Assembly: GCA_023458615.1 (NCBI GenBank)
Contig: JAEWYV010000282.1
Coordinates: 1 to 32,358, forward strand
Length of the DNA: 32,358 bases
Reading direction: 5' to 3'
Source: Bacillota bacterium
GTDB lineage: Bacteria; Bacillota; Clostridia; Christensenellales; CAG-138
The translations under genes and the position numbers were made by a program. Under the pieces are notes generated by a model. That model was not told the DNA's origin. It worked only from the letters and a program-made list of their open reading frames with translations, and ran no database searches. Below, in pieces: positions 2,649 to 28,081 of this stretch (positions within the stretch are counted from its first letter, which is position 1; each line of letters starts with the position of its first letter).

Positions 2649-2662
2649 CGAACAAATGTACG
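2649..2662 (+). promoter_or_regulatory. Candidate LexA (Cheo/SOS) box
   Basis: CGAACAAATGTACG differs at one position from the Gram-positive LexA consensus CGAACRNRYGTTYG (GAAC-N4-GTAC instead of GTTC). It directly abuts the -35 of the polymerase promoter. Confidence 0.55.
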
Positions 2663-2692
2663 TTGACAAAAGGAATACGCCAAGTGTACAAT
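2663..2692 (+). promoter_or_regulatory. Sigma-A type promoter for the Y-family polymerase operon
   Basis: TTGACA (2663..2668), an 18-nt spacer, then TACAAT (2687..2692). This is about 130 nt upstream of the ATG at 2822. Confidence 0.6.
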
Positions 2693-2821
2693 GCGATTAC
2701 GAGATGTAGCCGCACTTACGATCGGACGGGTGGATTGAGCGCCATCATCGTACGGCGCGTATCATCCAACCTGCGGCGGGCGGTACGCCGCTCAGTATTG
2801 CTGGACAGCTGGAGAAGAAGC

Positions 2822-4345: not shown

Positions 4346-4809
4346 CGGAACCATATGACGACATCATCCATCTGCCGCACCATGTCTCTGCGACGCGTGC
4401 GCACATGCCGGTTATGGATCGGGCGGCGCAGTTTTCCCCTTTCGCCGCGCTGGCCGGTTATGCCAACGCCATCAGCGAAACCGCGCGGCTGACGAGCGAA
4501 CGGATAGAGCTGGACGAATGCATCAAGAGCGCGTTGAGCGACCGGATGCAGGTGATTGTGGAGCGGATAAAGGAGCACCCCGAGATTGCAATTACCTACT
4601 TTCAGCCGGATACAAAAAAGGACGGCGGCGCTTATAGGACTGTTATCGACACGGTTAAAAGGATAGATAGTTCGGAGCGGGTGGTCATTCTGTCCAGCGC
4701 CGGTGCGGTCATTCCCTTTGATGAAATCATTGGAATCGATGGACAGATCTTTGAGCGATATGCGGATGCTATTGCCGCAGGTGGTTTTGATTTACCTTCT
4801 GAGTGCTAG
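4342..4809 (+). CDS. YolD-like protein (accessory partner of Gram-positive Y-family polymerases)
   Basis: An ATGA start/stop overlap with the polymerase gene indicates translational coupling. The motif MPVMDRAAQFSPFAALAGY is typical of the YolD-like family, and polymerase/YolD pairing is known from B. subtilis uvrX-yolD and yqjW-yqjX. Confidence 0.8.
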   Translation: MTEPYDDIIHLPHHVSATRAHMPVMDRAAQFSPFAALAGYANAISETARLTSERIELDECIKSALSDRMQVIVERIKEHPEIAITYFQPDTKKDGGAYRTVIDTVKRIDSSERVVILSSAGAVIPFDEIIGIDGQIFERYADAIAAGGFDLPSEC

Positions 4810-10964: not shown

Positions 10965-12629
10965 ATGAAACAGGCATGGTGGAAAGAGCGGGTGTTTTAT
11001 CAAATCTACCCGCGCAGCTTTCTGGACACGAATGGAGACGGCATCGGCGATCTCAGAGGCATCATCGAAAAATTGGACTATCTCAAGTCCCTTGGCATCG
11101 GCGCAATCTGGCTCTGCCCGGTATATGATTCGCCAAACGACGACAACGGCTACGATATCCGCGACTATGAGAACATCATGGCGGAGTTCGGCACGTTGGC
11201 GGATTTCGACGCGCTGCTGGAAGGGCTTCACGCACGCGATATCAAACTCGTGATGGATCTCGTGGTCAATCACAGCTCGGATGAGCACGCATGGTTTAGG
11301 GAATCCCGCAAGGCGAAGGATAACCCGTACCGTGACTACTATATCTGGCGTGATGGAAAAGACGGCGGCACGCCGAACAACTGGGCTTCTTTTTTTGCGC
11401 CATCCGCGTGGAAGTTGGACGAGGCGACGGGACAGTATTATCTCCATCTGTTTTCCGAAAAACAGCCCGATTTAAACTGGGAAAATCCCGCAGTCCGGCA
11501 GGAAGTCTATGATATGGTTAACCGATGGTTCGACCGCGGTGTGGACGGATTTCGCATGGACGTGATCAACTGCATCGCAAAGGATGCGGGCCTGCCGGAC
11601 GGCGCAGGTAAATCGAATGCCGCCGGTTACACACTCGCGGTGGAACGCTTTGCCAACCGGCCAAAGTTCTATGAATATTTGCGTGAACTCAGGAAGAATT
11701 GCTATGCGGGCAGGGATTGCCTGTGCCTCGCCGAGGCTCCGTTTACATCGCCGGAGGAAGGCGCGCGGATGCTTGATGAAGAGGCGGGTATATTTGACCT
11801 GATTTTTCCGTTTGATTTGATGGAGATTGACGATGGTCCGAATGGGAAATACGATCCGGTTCCTTGGACACTCCGGCAATTCAAAGTAGTGATCAACCGC
11901 TGGCAGACTGCCACCGAACATGGCTGGGGCAGCTTATTTTGGTCGAATCATGATCAGGCACGCGCGGTGTCGCGCTTTGGCAGCATGGAAACGGAGGAGC
12001 TTCGCATCCGCTCGGCAAAGATGCTTGCCGTTGCCATGTACCTTCTGCGGGGTACACCATTTGTCTATCAGGGCGAAGAACTCGGTATGACGAACACTCC
12101 GTTTCCCGATGAATCGGCGATTCGCGATATCGAGGGCATCAACGCTCTCAATGAGGCGCGCATCACGGGGCGTCTTGCTCAAACATGGAAGGGAATTCTG
12201 CACAAAGGTCGTGATCATGCGCGGACGCCGATGCAGTGGAGCGCGGCAAGGAGCGCGGGCTTTGCAGTGGGCGCGCCGTGGATCATGATAAACCCGAATT
12301 ACAACGTGATCAATGTGGAGGCGGAAGAACAGGATCCGGACTCGGTACTTTCTTTCTATAAAACGCTGATTGCGCTGCGAAACGGCAGCAAAACGCTGCA
12401 ATATGGATCGTATGTTCCACTCTGGACGGAGCATGGGCAGATTTTCGCGTATCAGCGCGAGCTGGGCGACGAAACGGTTACCGTTGTTTGCAATATGCAT
12501 AACGGCGAGGTTGATTTGCCTGAAATACCGACGGGAGAAGTCATACTGTCCAATTTGACCAGGAACAACAGCGGGACAATGCTTCCATATGAGGCACTTG
12601 TTATATCATGTAAAAGTGGGTGTATTTAA
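10965..12629 (+). CDS. GH13_31 oligo-1,6-glucosidase / alpha-glucosidase
   Basis: The N-terminus MKQAWWKERVFYQIYPRSFLDTNGDGIGDLRGIIEKLDYLKSLG matches oligo-1,6-glucosidases such as B. subtilis MalL. The QPDLN marker, DLVVNHSSDEH, GFRMDVI and NHDQ are present. The ATG at 10965 has a GGGAG ribosome-binding site at 9 nt. The track ORF begins at an in-frame TTG at 10959. Confidence 0.93.
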   Translation: MKQAWWKERVFYQIYPRSFLDTNGDGIGDLRGIIEKLDYLKSLGIGAIWLCPVYDSPNDDNGYDIRDYENIMAEFGTLADFDALLEGLHARDIKLVMDLVVNHSSDEHAWFRESRKAKDNPYRDYYIWRDGKDGGTPNNWASFFAPSAWKLDEATGQYYLHLFSEKQPDLNWENPAVRQEVYDMVNRWFDRGVDGFRMDVINCIAKDAGLPDGAGKSNAAGYTLAVERFANRPKFYEYLRELRKNCYAGRDCLCLAEAPFTSPEEGARMLDEEAGIFDLIFPFDLMEIDDGPNGKYDPVPWTLRQFKVVINRWQTATEHGWGSLFWSNHDQARAVSRFGSMETEELRIRSAKMLAVAMYLLRGTPFVYQGEELGMTNTPFPDESAIRDIEGINALNEARITGRLAQTWKGILHKGRDHARTPMQWSAARSAGFAVGAPWIMINPNYNVINVEAEEQDPDSVLSFYKTLIALRNGSKTLQYGSYVPLWTEHGQIFAYQRELGDETVTVVCNMHNGEVDLPEIPTGEVILSNLTRNNSGTMLPYEALVISCKSGCI

Positions 12630-12809: not shown

Positions 12810-14108
12810 TTACGCCTGATAGGGCAGCTTCTTTCCCAGTACCGCTTCATACATAGCCAGAAGATTTTCCGGCGGCACTTTGGCGACGACATTGTGGATG
12901 CTGGCGAACACATATCCGCCTCCTTGGTTGAGAATCTCAACGCGCTGTTGCACCTCTTTGCGCACCTCTTCCGGTGTTCCAAAGGGGAGCGTTCTCTGCG
13001 TATCCACGCCGCCGCCCCAGAACACGAATTTGTCCCCATATTTCTCCTTCAACGCCGCGGGTGAAAACCCGTCGCCGTGCTCAATGGCGCTGAACTGAAC
13101 CGGGTTGAGGCAGTCGATTCCGATCTGCGCAAAATCGTCCAACAGCGTATTGATGCGTCCGCAGGTGTGGTAGAAGGTTTTCCATGCGGTGTTCTGGTGA
13201 ATCCAGTTGTTGATCTGGCTATAGTATGGCTTGTAGAGCTGCCGGAATGTATCCAGACTGGTAAACGTTCCGTTCTGCGTGCCAAAATCTGTTCCGGAAA
13301 CCCAGATGACCTGTATGCGGTTCCCGACGGCCTGCCGATAGATCTCCAGATTCTTCAGCATAATCTCGGTCTGATATGAGAAAATCTCGTTGATATAGTC
13401 CGGGTAGAGCACATGCGCGAGGAGCCACTCTTCCACCTTTCGGATGCCTTTGGGGTGTTTGACGGATGGACCCGGCACCATTGCGACGTCGCCAAGACCC
13501 GCGCCGCCCAAGACGCCCATCACCGCATAATCGGTCCCTTCGAACAACTCATGCGACTTTGTCTCCCAATACCGCGCTTCTTCATCCGTCGCGAGGGCAA
13601 AGTCGTCGCGAAAATCCTCCAAAGGCGTCAATTGATCCTCGTCCAAGTCCATATCAAACGCTTCGTCAAAATGATCGATCGAATCGAAGAAGGAACCGTT
13701 TGCCGGCATGCAGACGCTTGGCTTGACGCTGCGATCTCCCTGGGGATACACCAGCGTGTCGCCGTTCTCGCGCACGTCATAGGTAAACTTGGAGCCCATG
13801 AATACCGGCGTTCCGTCACCCAACTGCCACTTGGTCTGATGATCGTTTTGATAGCCCAGCATATTGCCCGTGTTCCAAAGGCCGATGACGTCCCCGCCGA
13901 CCGCGCGCCGCAGATCATCCTCCACTTCGCCGAGCATTTGAAACGGCTCCAGCACGTTAAGGCGATGCTCGTCCAGCCCCAGCGCCTTGCGGAACTTGTA
14001 CATGGTGCTGACATTCATGCCGGTTTGACCGTTGCTGCCAAGGTCGATGGGGCAGCGATCCGGCTGCTGATGGTTCAGCGCAGCAATTACTCGTTCTCTC
14101 GAATTCAT
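12810..14108 (-). CDS. URO-D/MtaA-superfamily protein, paralog C (not a bona fide HemE)
   Basis: From the ATG at 14108 the N-terminus is MNSRERVIAALNHQQPDRCPID, matching paralog B (MNSRERTLLALHHEQPDRPPVS), and it is preceded by a GAGG ribosome-binding site. The track ORF extends to a TTG at 14138. Motifs are YHTCG and a C-terminal LPFGTPEEV...GGGYVFASIHNV..PPENL typical of the uroporphyrinogen decarboxylase / methylcobamide methyltransferase fold. Confidence 0.8.
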   Translation of the reverse strand: MNSRERVIAALNHQQPDRCPIDLGSNGQTGMNVSTMYKFRKALGLDEHRLNVLEPFQMLGEVEDDLRRAVGGDVIGLWNTGNMLGYQNDHQTKWQLGDGTPVFMGSKFTYDVRENGDTLVYPQGDRSVKPSVCMPANGSFFDSIDHFDEAFDMDLDEDQLTPLEDFRDDFALATDEEARYWETKSHELFEGTDYAVMGVLGGAGLGDVAMVPGPSVKHPKGIRKVEEWLLAHVLYPDYINEIFSYQTEIMLKNLEIYRQAVGNRIQVIWVSGTDFGTQNGTFTSLDTFRQLYKPYYSQINNWIHQNTAWKTFYHTCGRINTLLDDFAQIGIDCLNPVQFSAIEHGDGFSPAALKEKYGDKFVFWGGGVDTQRTLPFGTPEEVRKEVQQRVEILNQGGGYVFASIHNVVAKVPPENLLAMYEAVLGKKLPYQA

Positions 14109-14204
14109 TGGATACCTCGCTTTATCGTTCTTTTTCAAATTTGTGCTTACTGAATGTTGTTTTTGCGGCGAACAACATAGCAGAGTGGCGATTGATCCGT
14201 TATG

Positions 14205-15248
14205 CTACGCGTTTTTTCCCAATGCCGCCGCGTAAAACGCCTTGATGTTTTCCATGCTGGTGTCGGACTGGATGTGGTGCGCGGGGGAAAGGATGTAACC
14301 GCCTCCTGCACCGAGCCGCTGCTGATAGTCCCGAACGGTACTGGTCACCTGCTCCGCCGTTCCAAACGGCAGCAGCATCTGCACATCGACCGCGCCAAAA
14401 AGCGTGAGCTTATCCCCGTAACGCTGCTTGATGAGATATGGATCCATCGACAGCGGCTGAATGGGATTGATGACATCCAGCCCGATCTCGATGAAATCGT
14501 CGAATGTATCCTGACAGTTCCCGCAGGAGTGATACGCGATAAAGATATTCGGGTTGCGCTTTTTAAACGCGGCGAATATTTTCGCGTATCGCGTTTTAAA
14601 ATACTTGCGCCACATGGGCAGGGACATCATCATGTTTCGCTGTGTTGCGATGTCGTCGCCAAGCCAGATCATGTCTGCGCCCGCGTCAATCATATGCAGT
14701 CCCGCTTTGAGCGGAAACTCCATGATCTTATCAAACATCTCATTTGCATAGTCCTCATCGGCGATCATGTCCATCAGCGTCGCCTCGATCCCGTGCAGAT
14801 ACCATGCGGTCTCAAATATGGAGCATTGGCAGGAGCCGATGATGAACTTTTCAGCGCCGTAACGGCGGACGTTCTCCCGCAGGGGCTGATATTGGCTTTG
14901 TTCGTCGGGATCGGGAATTTGGTATGCCGCGAGTTTTGCGCCGTCTTCATCATGCATCAGCGCTCCGCCGATGATCTCGGTATAGGCGCCCGTTTCGTTG
15001 CGCACGTTTTGCCATTCCACGCCAAACTTACAGGTGTATGTTCCGGTTGGATAGAGATAGTAACTCATCTCCATTCCAACCGCTGTTTTGATCAAATCAT
15101 TTCCCATCACATAGCCAAGGTCCTCGCCATCGCCGCCAAATTCCGCGCGCAGCATGGCGGCGACCTCCGGCGTATAGGTTGCGGAAACCGGCGGGCGGTC
15201 AGGCTGCTCGTGATGCAACGCCAGTAAGGTTCTTTCTCTCGAGTTCAT
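14205..15248 (-). CDS. URO-D/MtaA-superfamily protein, paralog B
   Basis: Motifs are MNSRERTLLALHHEQPDRPPV, WLGDDIATQRNMMMSLPMWRKYF, YHSCGNC and LLPFGTAEQV...GGGYILSPAHHIQSDTSMENIKAFY. An ATGA overlap joins it to the upstream epimerase-fold gene. The antisense 341-aa ORF has no recognisable features. Confidence 0.85.
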   Translation of the reverse strand: MNSRERTLLALHHEQPDRPPVSATYTPEVAAMLRAEFGGDGEDLGYVMGNDLIKTAVGMEMSYYLYPTGTYTCKFGVEWQNVRNETGAYTEIIGGALMHDEDGAKLAAYQIPDPDEQSQYQPLRENVRRYGAEKFIIGSCQCSIFETAWYLHGIEATLMDMIADEDYANEMFDKIMEFPLKAGLHMIDAGADMIWLGDDIATQRNMMMSLPMWRKYFKTRYAKIFAAFKKRNPNIFIAYHSCGNCQDTFDDFIEIGLDVINPIQPLSMDPYLIKQRYGDKLTLFGAVDVQMLLPFGTAEQVTSTVRDYQQRLGAGGGYILSPAHHIQSDTSMENIKAFYAAALGKNA

Positions 15249-16159
15249 TGTGCTTTTACTCCTTCAAACGATAGGATCACTCCGAAATGGTTTGTTGCGT
15301 GCGGCTCGATTTTGCTGATTCGCCCGCTGTTGTGTGCGCGCGCTTGCGTGTCGTAAGCCCCGGTGCAGGGTTCGGGTGCGACGCAATTCATCTCTACGCC
15401 TTCGTCCACCCAAACACCGAGATAGGGCGCGTTGATGCCGAGGAGGGATATGATTGTTCCGTCCGCATAAATGATGTGGGAACGGTTTTCTTCGCGCTCG
15501 TTTTCCACATAGTATTTACTCTGGCATCGATTGGACGGGGCAAGACCGCTTAGATCGCGCAGGTCATTTGAAATTGGCCAGCCGTGCTTCTGCCCGTCCT
15601 CGCCCAGATATCGCTGTCCGCCAAAGACATTGACAATCTGCGTTACGTTTGGAAGATCCAGACGCGTGCCTTCCTCCAACACAAAGAGCGGATGCGCGGC
15701 CCAGATAAATTCATAGGCATGCTCAGACAGGTTCGTCAGCGTGTAATTTAGCATGATGTTGGAGCCGCTTACCTGCACTTGTTTTTCCAGGCGGTAGGGG
15801 AGAACAACCCCTAAGATGGAGAGCCGCACACCAGTATCCGTGATTTCGCCGTCCCAACTTGCCGACCAAACCTCGCCATGATCAGGGAGCGGGGTTCCGT
15901 CAAAGGCACCGCCAACGTATAATCCGGCTGAAATATTGGGGAACATGTCGTCAAATCCAGAGAATTCGCCTTGCGTAAAGCTGTCTCCATGCTGAGAAAT
16001 GCGATAAAGATCGGAACTGGTGTTTTGCACGAGGTATTCCTTGTCTTGAAACCGGATGCTCTGCAGCTTGGCACCGTAATTGGATAAAATGACGGAAAGT
16101 TCGCCGTCCTGAAGAAGATATGCTTCTATGCCTTTATAGGTTGTTTTCAGCGCGCTCAT
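15245..16159 (-). CDS. Aldose 1-epimerase (galactose mutarotase-fold, LacX/YphB-like) family protein
   Basis: Motifs are SNYGAKLQSIRF, PDHGEVW, AAHPLF and YLGVWVDEG...CVAPEPCTG, which parallel LacX-type mutarotase-like proteins. The start overlaps the upstream stop by 1 nt (TGATG). Confidence 0.75.
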   Translation of the reverse strand: MSALKTTYKGIEAYLLQDGELSVILSNYGAKLQSIRFQDKEYLVQNTSSDLYRISQHGDSFTQGEFSGFDDMFPNISAGLYVGGAFDGTPLPDHGEVWSASWDGEITDTGVRLSILGVVLPYRLEKQVQVSGSNIMLNYTLTNLSEHAYEFIWAAHPLFVLEEGTRLDLPNVTQIVNVFGGQRYLGEDGQKHGWPISNDLRDLSGLAPSNRCQSKYYVENEREENRSHIIYADGTIISLLGINAPYLGVWVDEGVEMNCVAPEPCTGAYDTQARAHNSGRISKIEPHATNHFGVILSFEGVKAQ

Positions 16160-17331
16160 CAGTATTTGCCGTAGCGCAGAGCTGTGTCCACAAACGCTTT
16201 GATATTCTCGATCGGGGTACCATATTCAAAGAAGTCCGCGTTTTGAATGATGTTACAGCCCTTCATCTTGGCGGCGAGCGCCGTTCTACGCGTTGCCTCA
16301 ACAACATCCTCCACCGTTCCTTTTTGAATGATGTTTACCTGATCTACGCCGCAATGCATGATGTAATCCCCGTTGATGACATCCACGGCATGCTCTAGAT
16401 TTGTGTCTCCGAGCGGCGGCGGAGAGAAGGGCTCTACAATGCGGCTCCCCAACTCTTTATAGGAATCGATAAGCGACATGATTTGACCGCAGTTGTGATA
16501 GATGCAGGGCTTACCCTCACTCTGGAAGAGCTCGATATACGCCTTTTCATAAGGAAGGGCATATTTGTCATAATTCTTCTTGCCCATGAACCCGCCGGGG
16601 ACATTGCCGCCGATGAAGTAGGCATCAAGCTCCGTATCCATATAGGCGCGGATATAATCGTTGAAGCGCGTGAGTGAAAAGCGCATCAACTTTTCATAAT
16701 ACTCTTCATCAAAGAGAAACAGGGAGTACAACTCATCCAGTTCAATTAGATGAGACGCGTTGTTAAACGGGCCATAGGGCACCCAAGCGCCAACGACGCC
16801 ATCCCCGCCGACATATTGCTTCATACGCTTGACCCGGTCACGAATGGACTGCGCAAACTCGTCGCTCATGTCCGGCTCATGCGCCATGACGACGTCGAGA
16901 TCCTGCTCGCACTGCACCGGCTTTTTTGTGCAGGCAAACATGAGCGTTCTATCATATAAACGATTGATGGAAAATTCCTGCGTCAGCGTGCCATCCGGCG
17001 TCTTGATGGTTGATGCGATTACGTGGGTTGAGCCGCTTTGGCGCTCGGTGGAGCTCACCTGCCAGTTTTTTGTGCTCTTTGAAATATTGACGCCGCCAAA
17101 TAGGACGTGCTGCGGGAGTGCCTCGTCAAATAAAATGCGTAAAAACACATCCGCGCCCATTTCGCGCTGGAAATCGACCGATGCTTTTTGCAGTGCGTCG
17201 TATTCGTCCTCCGCCAGTTCGGGGTGCAGCTGATTGAGCAAATGACCCTGATCCTGAATAAAGAGGCATACCGGAATACGATCTGTTCTGACCTTTGCAA
17301 ACGTACTTAGAATACGATCTCTGCTGTCCAT
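16159..17331 (-). CDS. URO-D/MtaA-superfamily protein, paralog A (most divergent)
   Basis: Motifs are an N-terminal MDSRDRILSTFAKVRTDRIPV, YHNCGQ and a C-terminal GTVEDV...GTPIENIKAFVD. A strong GGAAGGAG ribosome-binding site lies at 17339..17346. It is the first gene of the minus-strand operon. Confidence 0.75.
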   Translation of the reverse strand: MDSRDRILSTFAKVRTDRIPVCLFIQDQGHLLNQLHPELAEDEYDALQKASVDFQREMGADVFLRILFDEALPQHVLFGGVNISKSTKNWQVSSTERQSGSTHVIASTIKTPDGTLTQEFSINRLYDRTLMFACTKKPVQCEQDLDVVMAHEPDMSDEFAQSIRDRVKRMKQYVGGDGVVGAWVPYGPFNNASHLIELDELYSLFLFDEEYYEKLMRFSLTRFNDYIRAYMDTELDAYFIGGNVPGGFMGKKNYDKYALPYEKAYIELFQSEGKPCIYHNCGQIMSLIDSYKELGSRIVEPFSPPPLGDTNLEHAVDVINGDYIMHCGVDQVNIIQKGTVEDVVEATRRTALAAKMKGCNIIQNADFFEYGTPIENIKAFVDTALRYGKY

Positions 17332-17452
17332 CGTGCATCTCCTTCCATTTATAGTGGTAGAATATCAAAGCCGGATTCCACGGTGAATCAAAAGTATTGA
17401 CATTTCTATGGGTAATATTAACTGGTTTTCAGCGTTTCAAAATTTACGTCAA

Positions 17453-17466
17453 TAACTTATAAGTTA
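17453..17466. promoter_or_regulatory. Perfect 14-bp palindrome in the divergent control region (candidate operator)
   Basis: TAACTTATAAGTTA is its own reverse complement. It is located between the divergent URO-D-like operon (start 17331) and the ABC importer operon (start 17564). Confidence 0.35.
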
Positions 17467-17563
17467 CCGCTAATTCCTCTTATTTTCGTACTCCAGCAGA
17501 GGCAATAAAATAAATCCAAGTCCAATCCATAAGCCAATCAAAGCATTTCGGAGGCTTTCAGCT

Positions 17564-19072
17564 ATGCAGCCTTTTCTAGAGTTCAGGAATATATCTATGC
17601 AATTTCCCGGTGTCAAAGCGCTCGATTCGGTCGGTTTTACCGTCAATCGCGGAGAGGTTGTTGCCTTTGTAGGCGAGAACGGCGCGGGGAAATCGACCTT
17701 GCTAAAGATATTAAATGGCGACTATCAGCCCACATCCGGAGAAATCTATATGATGGGAAATCGGGTTTGTTACGCAAACCCGGACGAGGCTATCAAGGCG
17801 GGCATCAGCGTGATCTATCAGGAACGGCAGCTTGCCCAGTATCTATCCGTCGCCGAAAACATCTTTCTAGGGCGTATCCCGACGCAGCATGGGTTTATCA
17901 ACTACAAACTGCTCAACGCCAAGGCACAGGCAATTATCGACGAATTCGGTCTTCCGCTCTCGCCAAGCGTCCATGTCAAAAACATCTCGGTGGCCTATCA
18001 GCAGATGGTAGAGATCATGAAGGCGTATGCGCGGGAAGCGGACATCTATTGCTTCGACGAACCAACGGCTCCCTTGACCGAATCGGAAATCAAGGTGCTG
18101 TTTGAGATTATTCGCAAGTTAAAGAGTCAGGGGAAAGCCATTATCTATATCTCCCATCGGCTCAGTGAAATGTTTCAGATCACCGACCGCGCGATCATCC
18201 TCAAGGACGGAAAGTTCGTAGCGGAGCGGTGCACCGCAGAGACAAACGAATCCGAATTGGTTAGTTTGATGGTGGGGCGCGATATCGGAGACGCATTCCT
18301 GCATCTCAATCGCAATCAGGAGATGGGCGAGACGGTGCTGGAGCTATCCGGCGTTACAACAGACAAACTCAAGGACGTTTCACTAACAGTACGTGCGGGC
18401 GAAATCGTCGGCCTTTCGGGGCTGGCTGGCGCTGGGAGAACGGAGATTGCGCGTGCCATCTTCGGCGCGGACAAGATCAAAAAAGGCAGCATGAAACTCT
18501 GTGGACGACCCTACGTTCCGCGCTCTCCAAAGCACGCCATGCGCATGGGCGTTGCACTTGCGCCGGAGGATCGAAAACTCGAAGGATTGTCCCTGATGCA
18601 GTGCGTGCGCGAGAATGTTACGCTGGCGGTCGTACCGCAATATACGGTTGCCGGGTTTATCAACTTTAAGCGGGATCGCTCGCTGGCAAAACAACTGATT
18701 CATGAGTTTAATATCAAAACCCCGTCTCCGGAGCAGACGGTCATCAACCTCTCCGGCGGTAATCAGCAGAAAATCATCCTCGCCAGATGGATGGCGATGG
18801 AGCCGAAGCTGATCATCTTTGACGAGCCGACCAAGGGAATTGACGTTGGCGCGAAGAGCGAAATCTATCGCATGATATGCAGCATTGCACACAGAGGGAT
18901 TGCCGTGCTGTTCATCAGCTCCGAACTTCCGGAGGTAATCGGATTATCCGATCGCATCATCGTGCTCAAGGACGGTCAGGTGACCGCGGATATTCAACAA
19001 AAAGATGCAACAGAGCGAGGAATCCTATCCTATGCAATGCTGGATCACACAAAAACGGAGGGAACACATTGA
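17564..19072 (+). CDS. CUT2-family sugar ABC transporter ATPase with two fused nucleotide-binding domains (RbsA/AraG/XylG type)
   Basis: Walker A motifs are GENGAGKST and GLAGAGRTE. The first signature is degenerate (VAYQQMVEI) and the second canonical (LSGGNQQK). Walker B motifs are CFDEPT and IFDEPT. A GGAGG ribosome-binding site lies at 17550..17554. Confidence 0.93.
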   Translation: MQPFLEFRNISMQFPGVKALDSVGFTVNRGEVVAFVGENGAGKSTLLKILNGDYQPTSGEIYMMGNRVCYANPDEAIKAGISVIYQERQLAQYLSVAENIFLGRIPTQHGFINYKLLNAKAQAIIDEFGLPLSPSVHVKNISVAYQQMVEIMKAYAREADIYCFDEPTAPLTESEIKVLFEIIRKLKSQGKAIIYISHRLSEMFQITDRAIILKDGKFVAERCTAETNESELVSLMVGRDIGDAFLHLNRNQEMGETVLELSGVTTDKLKDVSLTVRAGEIVGLSGLAGAGRTEIARAIFGADKIKKGSMKLCGRPYVPRSPKHAMRMGVALAPEDRKLEGLSLMQCVRENVTLAVVPQYTVAGFINFKRDRSLAKQLIHEFNIKTPSPEQTVINLSGGNQQKIILARWMAMEPKLIIFDEPTKGIDVGAKSEIYRMICSIAHRGIAVLFISSELPEVIGLSDRIIVLKDGQVTADIQQKDATERGILSYAMLDHTKTEGTH

Positions 19073-20055
19073 TGAGTAAGTCAAAGGAAGCTGGGTCGCA
19101 AAGCAAATTTGGCATTGCGATCAAGAAAATCCTGCGCGGGGACAATCTGGGTCTGCTGGTGGCGTTAATTGCCGTCGTAGCCATCTTTTCGCTCTTAAAT
19201 CCAAACTACTTTACAGCGCGCAACCTTAGAAATGTGTTTACCGCCGGTTCGCTAAGCGGATTGATCTGCGTTGGTGAGGCGATGCTCCTCATCGGCGGGC
19301 TGATGGACCTCTCGCCTGGCTCTACGGCAGCATTCTCCGGTGTGGTTGCCGCCATCCTGCTCCGTGCGAATGTGAATGTCGGCGTGGTGTTGGTTGTGAT
19401 TCTTGCCATCGGCGTTGTCGTTGGCGCAATCAATGCCTTCTTCACCACGCAGATGAAGATCAGTGCATTTATTGTTACGCTGGCTTCCCAGCAGATTATT
19501 CGCGGATTTTGTTATATCATATCCAACGGGGAAAGCATTCTGATTACCAATCCATTCTTTCTCTCGCTGGGCACGGCAAAGGTTCTCGGCATCCCGTTCC
19601 CGATTCTGTTCATGGTATTGATGTTTGTCGTGTTCTATGTTGTTCTAACGCGGATGCAACTCGGGAGGAACATCTATACCGTCGGCGGAAACGCAGTTGC
19701 GGCACGACTTGCTGGCATTTCCAATAAATCGACGACGTACATCCTATTTATCATCATGAGTGTGCTTGCGTCTTTGGGCGGCGCGATTCTTGCCTCACGC
19801 ATGAACACCGGGCAACCGCAAGCCTGTGTCGGGTTGGAGTTTGATGGAATCACCGCGGCGATCCTCGGCGGCGTTGCGATGAGTGGCGGCAGTGGTTCAC
19901 TGCTGGGTGCATTCGTCGGCCTGCTGATTCTGCAGGGATTCAATACGGGGCTTACCATCATCAACGTCCAGTCGTTCTGGCAATACGTTGCAAAGGGCGC
20001 ACTGCTGCTCATCGCTCTCTCGTTTGACTATTTCCGCGCAAAGCGGCGCGCGTAA
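19072..20055 (+). CDS. CUT2-family sugar ABC permease (RbsC/AraH type, BPD_transp_2)
   Basis: The ATG at 19072 overlaps the ATPase stop by 1 nt (TGATG). MSKSKEAGSQSKFGIAIKKILRGDNLG is followed by about 9 to 10 hydrophobic helices. The track ORF start at 18877 lies inside the ATPase gene and its extension is Arg-rich nonsense. Confidence 0.9.
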   Translation: MSKSKEAGSQSKFGIAIKKILRGDNLGLLVALIAVVAIFSLLNPNYFTARNLRNVFTAGSLSGLICVGEAMLLIGGLMDLSPGSTAAFSGVVAAILLRANVNVGVVLVVILAIGVVVGAINAFFTTQMKISAFIVTLASQQIIRGFCYIISNGESILITNPFFLSLGTAKVLGIPFPILFMVLMFVVFYVVLTRMQLGRNIYTVGGNAVAARLAGISNKSTTYILFIIMSVLASLGGAILASRMNTGQPQACVGLEFDGITAAILGGVAMSGGSGSLLGAFVGLLILQGFNTGLTIINVQSFWQYVAKGALLLIALSFDYFRAKRRA

Positions 20056-20114: not shown

Positions 20115-21179
20115 ATGAAAAAACTACTGACACTCTCTCTGGTTTTGATTCTGGCACTGAGCATGTTTACCGCCTGCCAGCCGCAAGCCCCTGCAACGGA
20201 CACGCAAGCGGCTGTGGAAGCCACGGCAGCGCCGGAAGCGGCCGCGGAAACCGCCGCCCCCGCACCGGCAGAAAAGATCGTCATTGCCGGTATCTATAAG
20301 TCCGGCGACCAACAGTGGTTCATTGGCGAAGGCGCAGCGGCAGCCGCCAAGTGCAAAGAGATGGGCGCATCTGACTTTATGTATATCGACGTAAAGCTGG
20401 ATCCGGATCTTTATCTGCAGGCGATTGACAATGCCATTACGCAGGGTGTCGCCGGCATCTTGACCTGCCCGCCGGATCAGAAGCTCTCCGGTGTTGTGGT
20501 TCAGAAGTGCAAGGAAGCCGGAATTCCGGTTGTTGCATGCGACGATGCGCTGATGGATGAATCCGGCAATCTGATTGCTCCCTATGTTGGCATCGATGCG
20601 CTCGCCATTGGCAAAGCCTGCGGCGAATGGGCAGCCAACTATGCCAAAGAGAACGGCATGACGGGCGAAGACACCGGCGTTCTGCTTCTCGCGGCGGATA
20701 CCATCTCCTCCTGCGTGCCCAGAACGGATGGCGCAAAAGAAGTTTGGATGACGAATTTCCCGGATTGGCCCGAAGCCCGTATGTGGCGCGTAGACTACAC
20801 CGGCCCGCAGGATGAAGCGTTTGACCAGGCAGCGGCAACCTTCACGGCACACCCGGAAATCAAGCACTGGGTCATCATGGCCATCAACGATGAAGGCGCG
20901 GCCGGCGCAACCAGAGCGCTGGAGCAGGCCGGCTTGGATAAGGACGCCGTCGTCGTTGGCATCGGCGGATACCTTGCCAAGCTGGAGTTCAAGAAGGATG
21001 GCGGCTCCGCATTTAAGGCGACTGCGTTCATCAACTATGTTGACGTTGGCTCCATGTCTGCCGAGAATCTGATGAACAGCATCCTCCAGGGCACCGAGAT
21101 CGGCATGGATACAAGAACACCCGCCGTCATGGTTACCGCAGAGAACTATGTGGACATCATGAAGGATCAGGCGAACTAA
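20115..21179 (+). CDS. CUT2-family monosaccharide-binding lipoprotein (Peripla_BP type I, AraF-like)
   Basis: A GGAGG ribosome-binding site lies 7 nt upstream. The lipobox is LSMFTAC, followed by an Ala/Pro/Glu/Thr linker. The core resembles my recollection of E. coli AraF (for example HPEIKHWVIMAINDEGAAGATRALEQAG and ILTCPPDQKLSGVVV), but this was not verified by alignment. Confidence 0.85.
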   Translation: MKKLLTLSLVLILALSMFTACQPQAPATDTQAAVEATAAPEAAAETAAPAPAEKIVIAGIYKSGDQQWFIGEGAAAAAKCKEMGASDFMYIDVKLDPDLYLQAIDNAITQGVAGILTCPPDQKLSGVVVQKCKEAGIPVVACDDALMDESGNLIAPYVGIDALAIGKACGEWAANYAKENGMTGEDTGVLLLAADTISSCVPRTDGAKEVWMTNFPDWPEARMWRVDYTGPQDEAFDQAAATFTAHPEIKHWVIMAINDEGAAGATRALEQAGLDKDAVVVGIGGYLAKLEFKKDGGSAFKATAFINYVDVGSMSAENLMNSILQGTEIGMDTRTPAVMVTAENYVDIMKDQAN

Positions 21180-21333: not shown

Positions 21334-22911
21334 CTACTCGTCGATTGCCTGCTGATAGCCGCCTCTTCGGTCGTTAAGCCCGTCCATCGCCCGCTTCCGA
21401 TAGTCGGTTGGCGATAATCCGGTTACCTTTTTAAAGATCAGAGAAAAGTATTGATAGGAGGAGAAACCGACGAGTTCTGCCACCTCATATAGCTTTTGAT
21501 GCGTGTTTGCCAGCAGGTGTTTGGCGCGCTCAATTCGGACATTCTCGATATAGTGGGCGATGTTTTCGCCCATTTTTTCTTTGAACAACCGGCAAAGATA
21601 ACTTTTGTGCATGTGAAGGCTATCCGCAATGTAAGAGAGCGAGATGTCGTTCATATACTCCATCTCAATGATACGAAGCGCCGAAGAGATGACGTCCTGC
21701 TTACTATCCGTTGTGGAGGAGATGAATTTGACAATCATGGATTTAAAGAACTGCGCCATCATCTCGTTGGATTCCATGCTGTTGACATCGTCAAGGTTGC
21801 AGGGCAATTCGCTGAAGATCTCCTCAAACGTATAGCCGCTTTGCTGAGAGAGAGAGATCACCGTTGACCAGAGCGAGGAATTGATATAGCGATAGTAGTT
21901 CATATCGATGAAGCCGGATGAAAACTCGATGGAATAGAGTTTGTCGATGAGCCCGATCACCGTTGGATTTGCGCTGGTCCAGAGTTTCTTGACGCGGCTT
22001 AACAGGTAATTGATCCTGTCAAAGTCAACCATATCGCGCTTGGGTAGGATGCAGTTGTACAATATGGTCTTCTCCGGACCTTCCGTAATGCGCATCTCTA
22101 CCGCTTTGCGAGCCTCGTGGCATGCAATCGGCAGATCGGTGATGCTCTTCACGGGATCGGAGACGCCGATTGTGATGTTTCCGATGCCAAACTCCTCCGC
22201 TTTGGGTCGAATGGCGCCTGAGGTAGCATAGGTTACGCTCATGAAGTACATCAGGGAATAGGTCTCGCTTGTTTCAAAGAGCATGTAGATAAACCCGTTA
22301 CCGTCATGATAGTAGCACAGGCAATTCACGCTTTTGGCAAATGCCGCAAGACGGCTGTTGACGACTTCGGCCCCTTCGCGGTAGCACATATTTTCATAAT
22401 CGTCCGGTGAAACGAGGAACACGGAGACAAATTTATACTGCATTGGCTCAGAAGCGATGTCCTCGCCCAAAGCCGCGCTTTTGAGTAAGGTGTGCATCCG
22501 GCCGCCGCATGGCGGAGCGGACGCCGGAGTCTCTGTCTCAGCCCGAACCGCAACCAGTAACGCTTTGATCTCATTGTCCGTCATGAGATCTTTCACGATA
22601 TAATCCTGAACCCCGAGACGGATTGCTCTGCGCGCATACTCGAACTTTTCAAAGCAGGAGATAATCACGATTTTCTGCTGCGGTTTGATCTTTCGCACCC
22701 GTGCGATGAAATCCAGCCCGTCCATGATCGGCATGATGATATCTGTAAACACAATATCAAAGTGGTTGGCGATCATGAGGTTGAGTGCCTCTGCGCCGTT
22801 TGTGGCAAGCACCGGCTGCTCATAGTCCAGCGCAGTCCAATCAACGATGCGCTTAAACATCTCTCTGGAAGCGAATTCATCGTCAACAATCAGCGCCCTA
22901 AGTTTTTTCAT
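21334..22911 (-). CDS. Two-component response regulator, CheY receiver plus AraC-type HTH output (YesN-like)
   Basis: The receiver reads MKKLRALIVDDE...DIVFTDIIMPIMDG...KIVIISCF. The C-terminal AraC helix-turn-helix reads YLCRLFKEKMGENIAHYIENVRIERAKHLL...FSSYQYFSLIFKKVTGLSPTDYRK. A GGAGGA ribosome-binding site lies in the end of the kinase gene. Confidence 0.93.
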   Translation of the reverse strand: MKKLRALIVDDEFASREMFKRIVDWTALDYEQPVLATNGAEALNLMIANHFDIVFTDIIMPIMDGLDFIARVRKIKPQQKIVIISCFEKFEYARRAIRLGVQDYIVKDLMTDNEIKALLVAVRAETETPASAPPCGGRMHTLLKSAALGEDIASEPMQYKFVSVFLVSPDDYENMCYREGAEVVNSRLAAFAKSVNCLCYYHDGNGFIYMLFETSETYSLMYFMSVTYATSGAIRPKAEEFGIGNITIGVSDPVKSITDLPIACHEARKAVEMRITEGPEKTILYNCILPKRDMVDFDRINYLLSRVKKLWTSANPTVIGLIDKLYSIEFSSGFIDMNYYRYINSSLWSTVISLSQQSGYTFEEIFSELPCNLDDVNSMESNEMMAQFFKSMIVKFISSTTDSKQDVISSALRIIEMEYMNDISLSYIADSLHMHKSYLCRLFKEKMGENIAHYIENVRIERAKHLLANTHQKLYEVAELVGFSSYQYFSLIFKKVTGLSPTDYRKRAMDGLNDRRGGYQQAIDE

Positions 22912-24663
22912 TTATTCCTCCATTTTCGCAGGCAGCGAGAAACGAACTGTGGTTCCAAATCCATATTTGCTTTCAATTTGCAAACCGGATGCTTCTCCGT
23001 AGCATAAAATCAAGCGGTCGTTGATATTCTTCAAACCGATGCTGTTGAATTTCTTCTCCTGCTTCAGAAGATTATCCAGCATATCCTCGGCGATGCCCTG
23101 TCCGTTATCCGAAATGGAAACCGTGAGCAGCCCATCGGCGCAAACCGCCGCAACCGAGATTGCAATTTTTTGTCCGCCCGGCAGCATGCCGTGAAACAGG
23201 GAGTTTTCGACCAACGGTTGCAGCAGCAGTTTCGGCAGCATACAGACGAGCGCCTGTTTATCCGCTTCAATGGAAAGCTCAAACATATCCTTATATCGAT
23301 ATTTCATGAGATGGGCATACGCTTTTAGGATGGAGAATTCCTCCATCAGCGGGATTTCCTCATGCGTGTTACTCAACGTTGCGCGGAGCAACCGGGTGAG
23401 GGACTGGAGGAATCCTTGAATTTTATCTACGCTTCCCTCTACTGCCAGATAGTTGATGACGTTGAGCGTGTTGTAGAGAAAATGCGGATTGATCTGTTGC
23501 TGCAAGGAGAGCAACTGATAGCGAAGCGCGGCAATTTCCGCCAGCTTACGCTCATCCTGCTCCTGACAAATGGTTTGGATATTCGCTTCGATGCTGTCGA
23601 TCATCTTGTTAAAGCCGTGCTCCAGCGTTACAATTTCGTTGGTTTGCCCGCTGATATCCACCTTTGCCGGAATGGTTCCTTCGTCAAAAATATGCATTGC
23701 AGCGCAGAGCTTTTGAATGGGGTTTGAGATGCGGCGAGAGATAAAGAACGAGAGCAAAATGACGATCGCAATGCCCACAATGCCAACCACGATGATAAAG
23801 CCGACGAGGTTGGAGGCGCTTTCATATATGGTTTGCGTTGAGAGTACCCCAACCAGATGCCAGTCCGGGTAGGAGGGGATGTTGCTATGAAAAAAGGTGT
23901 TGCTCGGTGTGCGATCCACCATGGTGGAATAGTTGGAATCGCACATTGAGATGACATGCTTCAAGACGGGTTCCGATTTGTCATATCCATTATTGCTGTA
24001 AACGACATTTCCATTTCCGTCTATGATATAGAAATAGTCCAGCTGTTTGTTGGCAAACGCCGTTCTGTCCTGAAAAAGCGAATCTTTTTCAATTGTGATG
24101 ACGATGGTACCATATGGGATCAGACTGGGCTTATCGCGCATACGAAAATAGTAGTTGATGCGCGTCATATAGTTTGTATTGTCACCATTATAGTAAGGGT
24201 AGGAATGCGGACTGGAAAATTGCTCTTCGCGGTTCACCTCGCTGAAGGCATCATAGCCGGTGTATTGTAGCATGCGGCTATAATCGGCCTCTACGAACGC
24301 AGGATTGAGCACCTTTCGATCCGGGGTAACAAACATAACAGAGCGCATGCCATACAGATAGATTCTGCGGAGGGCGGCTTCCGCAGGTTCTGATAGTGTG
24401 CCGTTCTTCACAGATTCCGTTATCTCGCTATTCTGGCGGATTAACTGTGTTACTTTGCGAATATCGTCCATGCGATTCTCGATGGAATTTGAAATAAACT
24501 CCATGGAGGAGCGCGTAACATCGATCTTTTGGCTGATAAAATATTCGGAAAACAGGATAGCGACCGCTGCGACAATGCCGGTCATCATGAGCACAAGCAG
24601 CGACGAATAGGAAATCGTCAACTGCGTGTTGATTGTGTTTAATCGCTTCAACCTATTTTGCAA
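22912..24663 (-). CDS. Sensor histidine kinase, YesM/LytS-type (two TM segments flanking a sensor domain of about 250 aa, then HAMP, His_kinase and HATPase_c)
   Basis: The hallmark motif is QQINPHFLYNTLNVINYLA, with LVENSLFHGM...DNGQGI in the ATPase domain. The TM helices are LLVLMMTGIVAAVAILF and FIIVVGIVGIAIVILLSFFI. The longest ORF reaches a TTG at 24684. I prefer the TTG at 24663 because AAGGGAG lies 8 nt upstream, so the start is uncertain by 21 nt. Confidence 0.88.
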   Translation of the reverse strand: MQNRLKRLNTINTQLTISYSSLLVLMMTGIVAAVAILFSEYFISQKIDVTRSSMEFISNSIENRMDDIRKVTQLIRQNSEITESVKNGTLSEPAEAALRRIYLYGMRSVMFVTPDRKVLNPAFVEADYSRMLQYTGYDAFSEVNREEQFSSPHSYPYYNGDNTNYMTRINYYFRMRDKPSLIPYGTIVITIEKDSLFQDRTAFANKQLDYFYIIDGNGNVVYSNNGYDKSEPVLKHVISMCDSNYSTMVDRTPSNTFFHSNIPSYPDWHLVGVLSTQTIYESASNLVGFIIVVGIVGIAIVILLSFFISRRISNPIQKLCAAMHIFDEGTIPAKVDISGQTNEIVTLEHGFNKMIDSIEANIQTICQEQDERKLAEIAALRYQLLSLQQQINPHFLYNTLNVINYLAVEGSVDKIQGFLQSLTRLLRATLSNTHEEIPLMEEFSILKAYAHLMKYRYKDMFELSIEADKQALVCMLPKLLLQPLVENSLFHGMLPGGQKIAISVAAVCADGLLTVSISDNGQGIAEDMLDNLLKQEKKFNSIGLKNINDRLILCYGEASGLQIESKYGFGTTVRFSLPAKMEE

Positions 24664-25263
24664 AATTGGGTCTCCCTTATCCAAGCTGGCAGATCAACTG
24701 CTGAGCTTGTTCGCGATTTGATCGTTGATGTGTTTGTTTACGGACTCGGATTTGCAATTTTCGCACTGTTGATTTTTTATGCCTTGAATAGGAGATTCTG
24801 CTCTTTGTCTTCAAAAATTTTATCGGATGGCGTTACTGCTTCACTATAGAATAATACAACACTAATATATCGTACACCGCTTAGACCAACAATATAATCC
24901 ATTTGTCGGAATATAAGAAATATTGTCTTGATATACGAATCCGGATGGATGCGAATGGCATCATATTGAAAAGAAGTATGACATAGTTGACTTCTTCATG
25001 CGGTTAATCGAATGAGAATTGCGTAGAATAAAACAAATCGGATCTCTTCAACATGCAGCTGCTGAGGCCGCATGGCGCTGCATGCACCAAAGTACATTCG
25101 CGAAAAGGCGCAACATCACCAGATAATTGACAATATAACGCAAAAGAGTACAAGCCCTGTCTAAACAAGAGAGTCCTTTAGGGGCAAGAAGTAGGATGAC
25201 ACATGATGGTCTGAACACGGTGAAAGCAGCGACTTGAGGTGGATGCAGGCACCACAGGCTTTT

Positions 25264-25300
25264 AACGAAAAAGCAGACCACCCGGTTTGCGGGTGGTCTG
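25264..25300 (-). terminator. Rho-independent terminator downstream of the GH51 gene
   Basis: The plus strand shows CAGACCACCCG (25274..25284), loop GTTTG, then CGGGTGGTCTG (25290..25300), a perfect 11-bp stem. On the minus strand CTTTTTCGTT follows it. It lies about 185 nt after the GH51 stop. Confidence 0.8.
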
Positions 25301-25484
25301 TGTGCGGGATGGACTTGAATCAACGACCTCCTAGGTGTGGCATATATCTCGGCGAAATGTCGTTAGGAATGTACGATGATTATGCAAGATAATCTCCGAC
25401 CTGTACGGATCATTGAACATGTACTTTTTGATGATCAATAACGATTATATGTCGTCATTGATGGCAATCAACGTCAAATAAACA

Positions 25485-27002
25485 TCAGGTAGTGGGCTTC
25501 ATGTTCGAATTCTGTATTCGAACCATGTTCCATGAAAACTTTGGCAGGGTTACTGTGATTATATGACCGGAGCATGAAAAATCATTATTCCGGACGGGGA
25601 AAACCGGAGAATGGGTTGCGGTATTAACGGAATCAACTGCGAAGTCACAGAGGGAAACATACTCTGATACGGAGAATGAATCTGGATTCGAAAGAATAAT
25701 TTGACAATCCCGTTGATGCTCCATATCACGGTTTACGAAAAACAGAACGATCTCGTTTTCGTCCTGGGAGAGGATTGCGGCGCCATCGACGTAGGGGATA
25801 GCATCATCGATCGCGCAGGCGTAGGTTGGGGATTCAATCGAGATGCGTATCGAAGTGCCGCGTCCATACCGCGAGGCATACAAAAACGGGTAATAGATGG
25901 TTTGAACCCATGCTTTGCCGCTTGGCTCGGTCATGATCGGAGCAATTGTGTTAACGAGCTGCGCTAAGCACGCGATCTTGACTACGTCCGCGTTGCGCAG
26001 GAGCGCATTTATCATGCAACCAACCAGCAGTGCATCCGCTCCATCGTAGACCTCCTCTTCAATGGCGCGCGGAAACGTCCATTTCTCCGGCATAATGCCG
26101 TCCTTTTGAAAATGATACCAGACGTTCCATTCGTCGAACGAGAGAAATACATCGCGGTCACTGTTTCTTCTCGCCTTCTCTGCGCGGCAAAATTCTGCAA
26201 CTTCGCGGATAAATCCTTCCATCTCAATGCTGCGCGCCAGAAACGAGGGCACGTCGCCATCGTTATTCTGATAATATTGATGCAGAGAAAGATAATCGAT
26301 GTAAGGGTAACAGTGCGTTAGCACTGTTTTTTCCCATGTGCCGAATGTTGGCATGCTCCGATAAGAACTGCCACACGCGACCAATTCAATAGACGGATCA
26401 AGCCACTTCATCATCTTTGCGGTTTCGCAGGCGATTCTGCCATATTCCTCTGCGGTTCTTGCGCAGATCTGCCATGGGCCGTCCATTTCGTTGCCGAGGC
26501 ACCAGAGCTTCACATCGTACGGCTCAGCGTGTCCGTTGGCGCGACGAAGCTCGGCAAAGTGTGTCGGCAGGTTGCCATTGACATATTCCAAAAGGTCACA
26601 GGCACTCTGCGGCGTACCGGTTCCGAGATTGACTCCGAGCATGCCCTGAACACCGAGGCGCTCACACCACTGTAAAAAATCATCTGTACCAACCTGATTT
26701 GGCTCCAAGGCAGACCATGCAAGCTCCGGGCGCACTGGGCGCTTCTCCCTCGGGCCGATGCCGTCCTGCCAATCGTAGCCAGATAGGAAGTTGCCACCGG
26801 GGTAACGGATACAGGAAAGGTTTAGAGGTTGAATGAGTTCTATCACATCTTGACGAAACCCGAACGCATCCGCGCTCTCATGTTCCGGCTCATAAATGCC
26901 CGTATAGACCGCGCGGCCCATGTGCTCGATAAAAGAACTATAGATGCGATCGTCAATCTTGCCAACCTTTTTTTGCAGATCAATTTCGATACGTGTGCTC
27001 AT
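25485..27002 (-). CDS. abfA: GH51 alpha-L-arabinofuranosidase
   Basis: Motifs are DDRIYSSFIEHMGRAVYTGIYEP, IRYPGGNFLSGYDWQDGIGP, acid/base WCLGNEMDGPWQ and nucleophile FLSFDEWNVWY. Together these are the canonical AbfA/GH51 signature. An ATGA overlap joins it to the upstream LacI-family gene. Confidence 0.95.
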   Translation of the reverse strand: MSTRIEIDLQKKVGKIDDRIYSSFIEHMGRAVYTGIYEPEHESADAFGFRQDVIELIQPLNLSCIRYPGGNFLSGYDWQDGIGPREKRPVRPELAWSALEPNQVGTDDFLQWCERLGVQGMLGVNLGTGTPQSACDLLEYVNGNLPTHFAELRRANGHAEPYDVKLWCLGNEMDGPWQICARTAEEYGRIACETAKMMKWLDPSIELVACGSSYRSMPTFGTWEKTVLTHCYPYIDYLSLHQYYQNNDGDVPSFLARSIEMEGFIREVAEFCRAEKARRNSDRDVFLSFDEWNVWYHFQKDGIMPEKWTFPRAIEEEVYDGADALLVGCMINALLRNADVVKIACLAQLVNTIAPIMTEPSGKAWVQTIYYPFLYASRYGRGTSIRISIESPTYACAIDDAIPYVDGAAILSQDENEIVLFFVNRDMEHQRDCQIILSNPDSFSVSEYVSLCDFAVDSVNTATHSPVFPVRNNDFSCSGHIITVTLPKFSWNMVRIQNSNMKPTT

Positions 27003-28042: not shown

Positions 28043-28081
28043 ACTCGCTTCTCTTTCCGTTCCAAACGACTCTAGATCGTT

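Follow-up and report, generated by a model that had tools for sequence, protein, structure and literature searches.

The closest described relatives of the genes considered here are the methylcobamide:CoM methyltransferases MtaA and MtbA, which have the TIM-barrel fold of the uroporphyrinogen decarboxylase (URO-D) superfamily, and the bacterial three-component O-demethylases, made up of an OdmB/VdmB-type methyltransferase I, a corrinoid protein, a methyltransferase II and an activase, in which a URO-D-superfamily enzyme demethylates phenyl methyl ethers. In a stretch of 32,358 nucleotides from a Bacillota bacterium (contig JAEWYV010000282.1 of assembly GCA_023458615.1, analyzed over its full length and called the window below), four adjacent genes encode three URO-D-superfamily paralogues, A, B and C, and a protein with a galactose-mutarotase fold, Epi. 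We propose that the paralogues are substrate-specific corrinoid-dependent methyltransferases which demethylate an imported arabino- or galacto-type O-methyl sugar, the corrinoid protein being encoded elsewhere; we give this reading a probability of about one half.

MtaA (structure 4ay7) was the best profile and structural match of B, with the same fold and with the His-x-Cys of the zinc site in register. Where MtaA/MtbA have Cys as the third ligand, B and C have His and A has Asp; the identity is about 20%, the NCBIfam scores lie 3-10 fold under the cut-offs, the hosts of the cassette are bacteria without coenzyme M, no corrinoid protein is adjacent and the genes are linked to a sugar importer. 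The three-component O-demethylases, of which OdmB/VdmB were compared by description only, resemble the proposed system in that a URO-D-superfamily enzyme acts on an ether, and corrinoid protein and RACo-type activase occur in loci related to ours. However, their genes are usually clustered with that of the corrinoid protein, whereas the partners here are an AraF-like ATP-binding cassette (ABC) importer, a two-component system and the mutarotase-fold protein. Corrinoid protein and activase were absent from the window; in related loci (numbered with the prefix L in this text) they were present in L022, L024, L033, L075, L079, L084 and L092.

Type 1 mlp clusters (Kountz & Balskus, PMC10418091) also carry several divergent MtaA-like paralogues per cluster in anaerobic Firmicutes, have no folate methyltransferase in the cluster and are of unknown function. 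Their context is methyl-sulfur or methyl-selenium metabolism and not sugars, and the cassette, with corrinoid protein and activase absent and an identity to MtaA of about 20%, falls outside the mlp definition. In Eubacterium limosum, the substrate-specific methyltransferases MtyB, MtcB and MtpB are encoded apart from the shared corrinoid protein, second methyltransferase and activase (MtqC, MtqA and RamQ; PMC8604678), as we propose here; in that organism, however, the first methyltransferases belong to the MttB superfamily and not to URO-D, and the substrates are quaternary amines. If our reading is true, the system would have an aerobic functional counterpart in the cytochrome P450 6-O-methyl-D-galactose demethylase of marine Bacteroidota (PMC6292453), but that enzyme depends on O2, has an unrelated fold and mechanism and yields formaldehyde. 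On the side of transport, Escherichia coli AraFGH and its arabinose-binding protein (ABP) are the nearest: ABP is among the nearest solved relatives of the substrate-binding protein (SBP) of the cassette, with seven binding residues kept, and AraG is the top NCBIfam match of the ATPase, but about five pocket residues are changed and the AraG score is under the equivalog cut-off.

The cassette thus resembles a corrinoid O-demethylase or MtaA-type system, yet it fails as HemE, as MtaA/CmuA, as a clustered three-component O-demethylase and as an mlp cluster. Our literature search returned no description linking URO-D-family proteins to sugar importers and no characterised pathway with this gene set, as an earlier sequence-only reading of the window had also held; the P450 route was the sole sugar O-demethylation found.

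A nine-gene cassette around the four-gene block

The four genes are packed on the minus strand. Paralogue A (16159-17331, 390 amino acids (aa)) is a rare, divergent URO-D-superfamily protein (PF01208 at 3e-17) with a His-Cys-Asp site. It overlaps by 1 nt the gene of Epi (15245-16159, 304 aa), a galactose-mutarotase-fold protein related to DUF4432/DUF5107, as identified by a structure model and profile matches. Epi in turn overlaps by 4 nt paralogue B (14205-15248, 347 aa), an MtaA-like member (PF01208 at 8e-31) with His240-x-Cys242 and His324. After a spacer of 96 nt follows paralogue C (12810-14108, 432 aa; PF01208 at 1e-17), which has a His-Cys-His triad and starts with an ATG preceded by GAGG seven bases upstream. 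The gene calls of public contigs with identical DNA gave the same four lengths.

Upstream of A, a divergent intergenic region of 232 nt (17332-17563), AT-rich and presumed to hold promoters and operator, separates the block from an importer on the plus strand. No convincing sigma-70 site was found inside this region by pattern scan, and promoter and terminator scans stayed at chance level. The importer is of the CUT2 type and consists of an AraG-like ATPase (17564-19072, two ABC_tran domains; 595 bits against the AraG model, whose cut-off is 689), a permease of the BPD_transp_2 family (19072-20055, 327 aa, PF02653 at 2e-30, with an identical call on a public contig) and a substrate-binding lipoprotein that, by its PDB matches, is like the L-arabinose-binding protein with an altered pocket (20115-21179). 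Back on the minus strand, Pfam identified a YesN-type response regulator (21334-22911; receiver and AraC helix-turn-helix (HTH) domains) and a YesM-type sensor histidine kinase (22912-24684; dCache, HAMP, His_kinase and HATPase domains; public call of 583 aa).

Locus context tables were built from tblastn searches. The order histidine kinase, response regulator, SBP, permease and ATPase, facing A, Epi, B, (D) and C, was kept with the same nine genes in a Bacillota metagenome-assembled genome (MAG) at 63-89% identity (L007) and in an Oscillospiraceae MAG at 47-80% identity (L003/L004). We read the four genes as the enzyme-coding half of a self-contained catabolic cassette of nine genes, which recurs in other Clostridia. 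A wider form without A and Epi joins B, C and a third B-like paralogue to the two-component system and a CUT2 ABC importer (L012, L013, L019, L026 and the human-gut contig L015/L027); the response regulator was kept with the cassette in L007, L003, L012, L013, L015 and L019.

In a Pfam scan of every large open reading frame (ORF) of the 32 kb, the window was found to contain GH5, two GH13, GH51, GH127, two LacI regulators, two CUT1 ABC sets, the CUT2 ABC set and the histidine kinase/response regulator pair. The outer flanks differ in L007 and L003/L004, so that GH13, GH51 and GH127 are not members of the cassette. For the same reason, the GH51/GH127 neighbours were rejected as markers of the substrate. 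The sequence-only reading had described the packed genes with their lengths, overlaps and motifs, and coordinates, independent gene calls and alignments agree with it; its link to an AraF-like importer and a YesM/YesN pair also held, as a unit conserved between different flanks. The glycoside hydrolases that it offered as context did not travel with the cassette. Nor did its case for a fixed stoichiometry, drawn from translational coupling, prove strong, since the A/Epi and Epi/B overlaps are lost in L003 and single B-like or C-like genes exist.

An obligate A-Epi-B-C complex was likewise rejected: most B-C cassettes are without A and Epi, B or C can stand alone, and in L007 and L001 a further paralogue, D (372 aa, 11058-12176 in each, with His-Cys-Tyr at the triad positions), is inserted between B and C. 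D is missing from the window, where the 96-nt spacer takes its place. In L001, A is truncated and the importer absent. More precisely, in the Clostridia MAG SZUA-584 (L001/L008, 8350-9087), A is split into pieces of 74 and 160 aa, and neither the importer nor the two-component system is present; from its sequence, this copy looks like a decaying cassette.

On the other side, between the histidine kinase and GH51 genes of the window, lies an AT-rich gap of 800 bp (24685-25484; GC about 0.43) with no ORF above 91 aa, no Rfam match and no tRNA. This gap may mark the cassette boundary.

Paralogues A, B and C and the corrinoid question

A, B and C all passed the PF01208 cut-off and all contain a YH(N/S/T)CG motif and a C-terminal G-T-x-E-(E/D)-V...EN(I/L) block. 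B and C have 14 of 21 N-terminal residues in common and are 33% identical across the C-terminal 206 residues; the identity between B and A is 24%. The profile of the B family matched MtaA (4ay7) at 9e-11 and UROD (HemE) at 0.0095. For the structure model of B (predicted local distance difference test score (pLDDT) 93.9), the top Foldseek match was again MtaA (E 7e-17, template modelling (TM) score 0.75, 20% identity), followed by URODs (1e-12, TM about 0.7) and then by MetE. A phmmer search of C against the PDB gave nothing useful. Since the scores against the NCBIfam MtaA/CmuA models are far under the cut-offs, A, B and C are, on sequence grounds, assigned to new subfamilies and not taken as MtaA orthologues.

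The His and Cys of YHxCG were in register with the zinc ligands of MtaA, as the sequence-only reading had asked to be checked, and its remark that the distal position is not Cys held as well: His324 of B stands opposite the distal Cys of MtaA. Thus H240, C242 and H324 of B align with the His, Cys and Cys of MtaA. The three positions are kept in the B (85/85, 79/85 and 83/83), C (H/C/H in 15/15 at each position) and B3 clades; in the A clade, the distal residue is Asp in all four sequences, and a further family, X, has His-Asp-Ser. Five other residues, D199, Q203, N261, Q264 and Q290, are common to B, B3 and C.

HemE (EC 4.1.1.37) was considered as an identity for the paralogues and judged very unlikely. 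They have the UROD fold, but the profile is nearer to MtaA, the HxC motif is conserved, and the N-terminus reads EQPDRPPV, where HemE has an RQAGR-type motif; the HxC metal motif is not known from HemE. Pfam scans of the window and of the cassette loci showed no haem or tetrapyrrole genes, in line with the earlier opinion that haem biosynthesis is not involved.

For 133 URO-D-like proteins of 100 loci, a tree resolved A, B, C, D, X and B3 as clean orthogroups. The A family is rare, at 32 representative clusters (E<=1e-30) out of 1.84 billion, while B has at least 1256 and C at least 5986 homologues, the top 120 of the latter all being at least 61% identical. C was paired with B in 21 of 90 loci. 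B and C together are the conserved core of the cassette.

A metagenome scan with the B alignment as query returned 80 loci. In five of these, small proteins with PF02310 and PF02607 are encoded directly beside B, C or X (L024, L033, L079, L084 and L092). In L024, B is 61% identical to that of the window, and acetyl-CoA synthase is adjacent as well as the corrinoid protein; L033 also holds an AraF-like binding protein; and in L092, permease, ATPase, X, corrinoid protein, C and B follow each other on one strand. A RACo-type activase is found in L022, where B is 64% identical and a CUT2 ABC set is present, and in L075 (C 60%, B 55%) together with a corrinoid protein. Orthologues of C at about 50% identity also lie directly beside corrinoid proteins or RACo activases. 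Furthermore, L020, L021, L022 and L024 form in the tree the sister group of the subclade of the window B.

These orthologue neighbourhoods, the E. limosum precedent of separately encoded partners and the known MtaA-like multi-paralogue clusters lead us to read the window as corrinoid-dependent with the carrier supplied in trans. The sequence-only reading had argued from the missing corrinoid partner to a non-cobalamin system. Its observation that hem, corrinoid, methyltransferase I and activase genes are lacking in the 32 kb was borne out, but the step from there is not supported, given that B orthologues at 61-64% and C orthologues at about 50% identity adjoin such genes elsewhere.

The proposed imported sugar and the mutarotase-fold protein

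The SBP was aligned to E. coli ABP, and 12 cassette SBPs, including that of Moorella, were compared. Its PDB matches were 4kzk (3e-28), E. coli ABP (1abe/6abp, 6e-27) and, more distantly, ribose-binding proteins (1e-10). With respect to ABP, K10, W16, F17, D89, D90, R151 and N205 are kept and E14Q, M108I, M204I, N232G and D235L are changed; we take the listed positions to be those contacting the sugar in ABP. The changes were consistent over the 12 cassette proteins (E14 to Q, M108 to I/L, M204 to I/P, N232 to G and D235 to L/M). By sequence comparison, this pattern suggests a ligand shaped like arabinose or galactose and bearing an additional non-polar group.

The sugar link is also seen in gene order. 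In Moorella thermoacetica (CP017019), a co-directional cluster starts with an AraR-like regulator, an M24 hydrolase-like gene, X, B (50% identical to that of the window), a distant C and an Epi homologue (39%), and continues with a CUT2 ABC set (SBP, ATPase, permease), an isomerase-like gene, ribulokinase (757 bits, cut-off 428) and L-ribulose-5-phosphate 4-epimerase (339 bits, cut-off 251). In the cultured Hydrogenoanaerobacterium saccharovorans (L098, 1-11053; protein WP_162840879.1), B is 55% identical and the transporter orthologues 62-68%, and the locus also carries a DUF4432 Epi-like gene and a DUF5107-TPR protein of 1104 aa. Of 41 long loci, 22 have CUT2 ABC genes alongside B, and B-like genes adjoin GH2 in nine loci and AraR-like regulators in four. 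Judged from these sequences, the sugar link of the cassette is real; the ABP-like SBP and the Moorella operon both favour the earlier suggestion that the substrate is likely to be a sugar, decorated or not.

A second type of CUT2 SBP, resembling ribose-binding proteins, occurs with B-like genes in L022, L031, L084, L085 and L087, of which L022 and L084 also have a corrinoid protein or RACo. The residues that bind arabinose are missing from this type; hence B-family proteins may act on more than one imported compound. In L031 (4299-8480), a CUT2 ABC set lies upstream of B3-like and B-like URO-D genes, which are followed by a glycyl-radical enzyme (PFL-like and Gly_radical domains).

The fourth protein of the block, Epi, scored 24.7 bits against PF01263, whose gathering score is 27, and is therefore below threshold; its homologues give weak DUF4432 or DUF5107 matches instead. 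A phmmer search of Epi against the PDB gave nothing useful, and a family profile and a structure model were required. The profile matched 3q1n and 3dcd at 1e-7, and the model (pLDDT 95.7) matched 3k25, 3dcd, 4bze, 3nre and 1l7k (E 1e-14 to 1e-10, TM 0.65-0.75). The model confirmed the mutarotase beta-sandwich fold predicted for Epi. D93-H94-G95-E96, H156 and E263 are invariant; H94, H156 and E263, identical in 35 homologues, align with the HG, HP and EP motifs of 3q1n and 3dcd, and we take them to correspond to H96, H170 and E304 of GalM.

In Cohnella endophytica (L017, 5443-10957), an Epi homologue with 35% identity lies beside a fatty-acid-desaturase-like protein, a Rieske ferredoxin and a flavin reductase, with an aldo-keto reductase, a creatininase-family protein, an AraR-like regulator and GH43 as further neighbours. 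This locus with its three-component oxygenase could be an aerobic (oxidative) route for the same sugar.

Competing readings, further features and implications

In the proposed pathway, the YesM/YesN pair would induce the AraFGH-like importer and the operon. The binding protein, built like the L-arabinose-binding protein but with a wider and more hydrophobic pocket corner, would most likely take up a free arabino- or galacto-configured monosaccharide bearing an O-methyl (or similar small alkyl) group. B, C and probably A would act as zinc-dependent methyltransferases of the MtaA/O-demethylase branch of the superfamily, the His-Cys-His site (His-Cys-Asp in A) binding and polarising the substrate oxygen, and the methyl group would be handed on to a corrinoid protein in its Co(I) state. 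MtaB, the methanol:corrinoid methyltransferase, is a precedent for breaking an aliphatic C-O bond with the help of zinc and moving the methyl group to Co(I). The corrinoid protein, a RACo-type activase and the downstream methyl-acceptor step would be encoded elsewhere and may be shared with other methyltransferases. Epi would interconvert anomers, either of the substrate or of the sugar left after demethylation, and this sugar would then enter ordinary pentose or hexose catabolism; in Moorella, the genes for the isomerase, ribulokinase and L-ribulose-5-phosphate 4-epimerase belong to the same operon.

Several results weigh against this pathway. Neither a corrinoid protein, a methyltransferase I or a RACo activase (Pfam of large ORFs; tblastn with related-locus queries) nor a pterin-binding methyltransferase was found in the window; Rfam returned no B12 riboswitch for the window or for any of seven cassette loci, and none of the top homologues of B or C was a fusion with a B12 domain. 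The sequence-only reading had regarded consistent co-occurrence with corrinoid protein and activase as the sign of a conventional methyltransferase system: the orthologue loci and the sister clade of B show such co-occurrence, but over the whole set of 90 distinct B loci, only 8 have a corrinoid protein or RACo nearby, and of the 41 loci of at least 8 kb only 3. The distal zinc-ligand position holds His in B and C and not the Cys of MtaA, and we know of no characterised enzyme with a His-Cys-His triad. A, B and C scored 54.6, 72.4 and 41.6 bits with TIGR01463 (cut-off 235.4) and 59.5, 82.6 and 42.7 bits with NF004889 (cut-off 244). C-like and B-like genes also exist alone, with an AraC regulator as sole companion. 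Finally, no direct evidence points to one particular methylated arabinose or galactose, we know of no case in which a non-phenolic sugar ether is demethylated by a corrinoid-dependent enzyme, and we know of no methylotrophy in hosts such as H. saccharovorans.

Some of these points fit better with the idea of the sequence-only reading, which we consider possible but unlikely, that the paralogues are corrinoid-independent zinc enzymes acting directly on the imported sugar with Epi as partner. Their chemistry could be a MetE-like direct alkyl transfer or a new reaction of the URO-D fold, such as an isomerisation or an ether cleavage. The lack of a corrinoid gene in the window and in about 90% of the related loci, the lack of a B12 riboswitch, the departure of the His-Cys-His triad from the His-Cys-Cys of MtaA and the position of the Moorella paralogues in line with Ara catabolic genes all speak for such enzymes, and the superfamily includes the cobalamin-independent MetE, which Foldseek also retrieved. 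However, B is much nearer to MtaA than to MetE, a domain for a second substrate (folate or thiol) is not evident, and this idea has to account for orthologous X-C-B sets whose operon also includes an inserted corrinoid protein gene (L092, L079 and L084) and for a sister clade of B that sits with corrinoid protein or RACo. If the corrinoid is accepted, the methyl donor might still be other than a sugar, namely a methoxylated aromatic or a methylated thiol or amine, the sugar-type transporter being coincidental or importing an aromatic or other ligand. The characterised non-HemE superfamily members acting on ethers all use phenyl methyl ethers, thiols or halides (PMC10418091). L024 combines B and corrinoid protein with acetyl-CoA synthase. 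Several of the loci presumably come from termite-gut or sediment metagenomes, where lignin methoxyls would be abundant. This reading is nevertheless improbable: CUT2 ABC genes recur in more than half of the long B loci, the SBP keeps the seven sugar-contacting residues of ABP, Epi has a mutarotase fold with its catalytic residues, the Moorella operon ends in ribulokinase and L-ribulose-5-phosphate 4-epimerase, and GH2 and AraR-like genes are recurrent neighbours.

A cofactor-free decarboxylation like that of HemE, on a tetrapyrrole or on a sugar acid (for example from a uronate to a pentose), is very unlikely. In its favour are the PF01208 membership, the alignment of the distal His with the His of the HemE GHG motif and the fit of a decarboxylation of D-galacturonate to L-arabinose, if it took place, with the Ara theme. 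Against it, the UROD profile score is marginal next to that of MtaA, the HxC motif and the N-terminus set the paralogues apart from HemE, hem genes are missing from the neighbourhood, and the non-oxidative decarboxylation of a uronate would take place without an electron sink. We retain corrinoid-dependent demethylation of an imported O-methyl sugar as our reading. It is rather doubtful that the cassette stands for the first anaerobic system removing methyl ethers from free sugars, a claim whose boldest form would be a corrinoid-free new chemistry exerted with Epi on an arabino- or galacto-type sugar.

Two features of the window lie outside the cassette. A LacI-family ORF upstream of GH51 (26999-28261) was called from a GTG, which puts about 70 extra N-terminal residues in front of the HTH; its true start is probably an internal ATG (MATIREISERTG...). 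A Y-family DNA polymerase gene (2618-4345, IMS domains), likewise extended by about 70 residues at the N-terminus, lies between two small ORFs with no Pfam match (2297-2617, 106 aa, and 4342-4809, 155 aa), which abut or overlap it. The three genes of this region (2297-4809) could form a mutagenesis cassette.

O-methyl sugars such as 4-O-methyl-glucuronate, 2-O-methyl-fucose, 2-O-methyl-xylose and 3-O- and 6-O-methyl-galactose occur in plant, algal and microbial glycans. The one demethylation route found in the literature search needs oxygen. The B and C families are very common and are found in human-gut metagenome contigs, in MAGs with chicken-gut names and in environmental metagenomes, and every homologue of B or C is annotated merely as uroporphyrinogen decarboxylase family. 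The cultured carriers M. thermoacetica and H. saccharovorans make our reading testable. If the paralogues are indeed sugar demethylases, thousands of genes would be re-annotated, the one-carbon metabolism of gut and sediment would gain an additional source of methyl groups, and corrinoid methyltransferase chemistry would be extended to aliphatic ethers.

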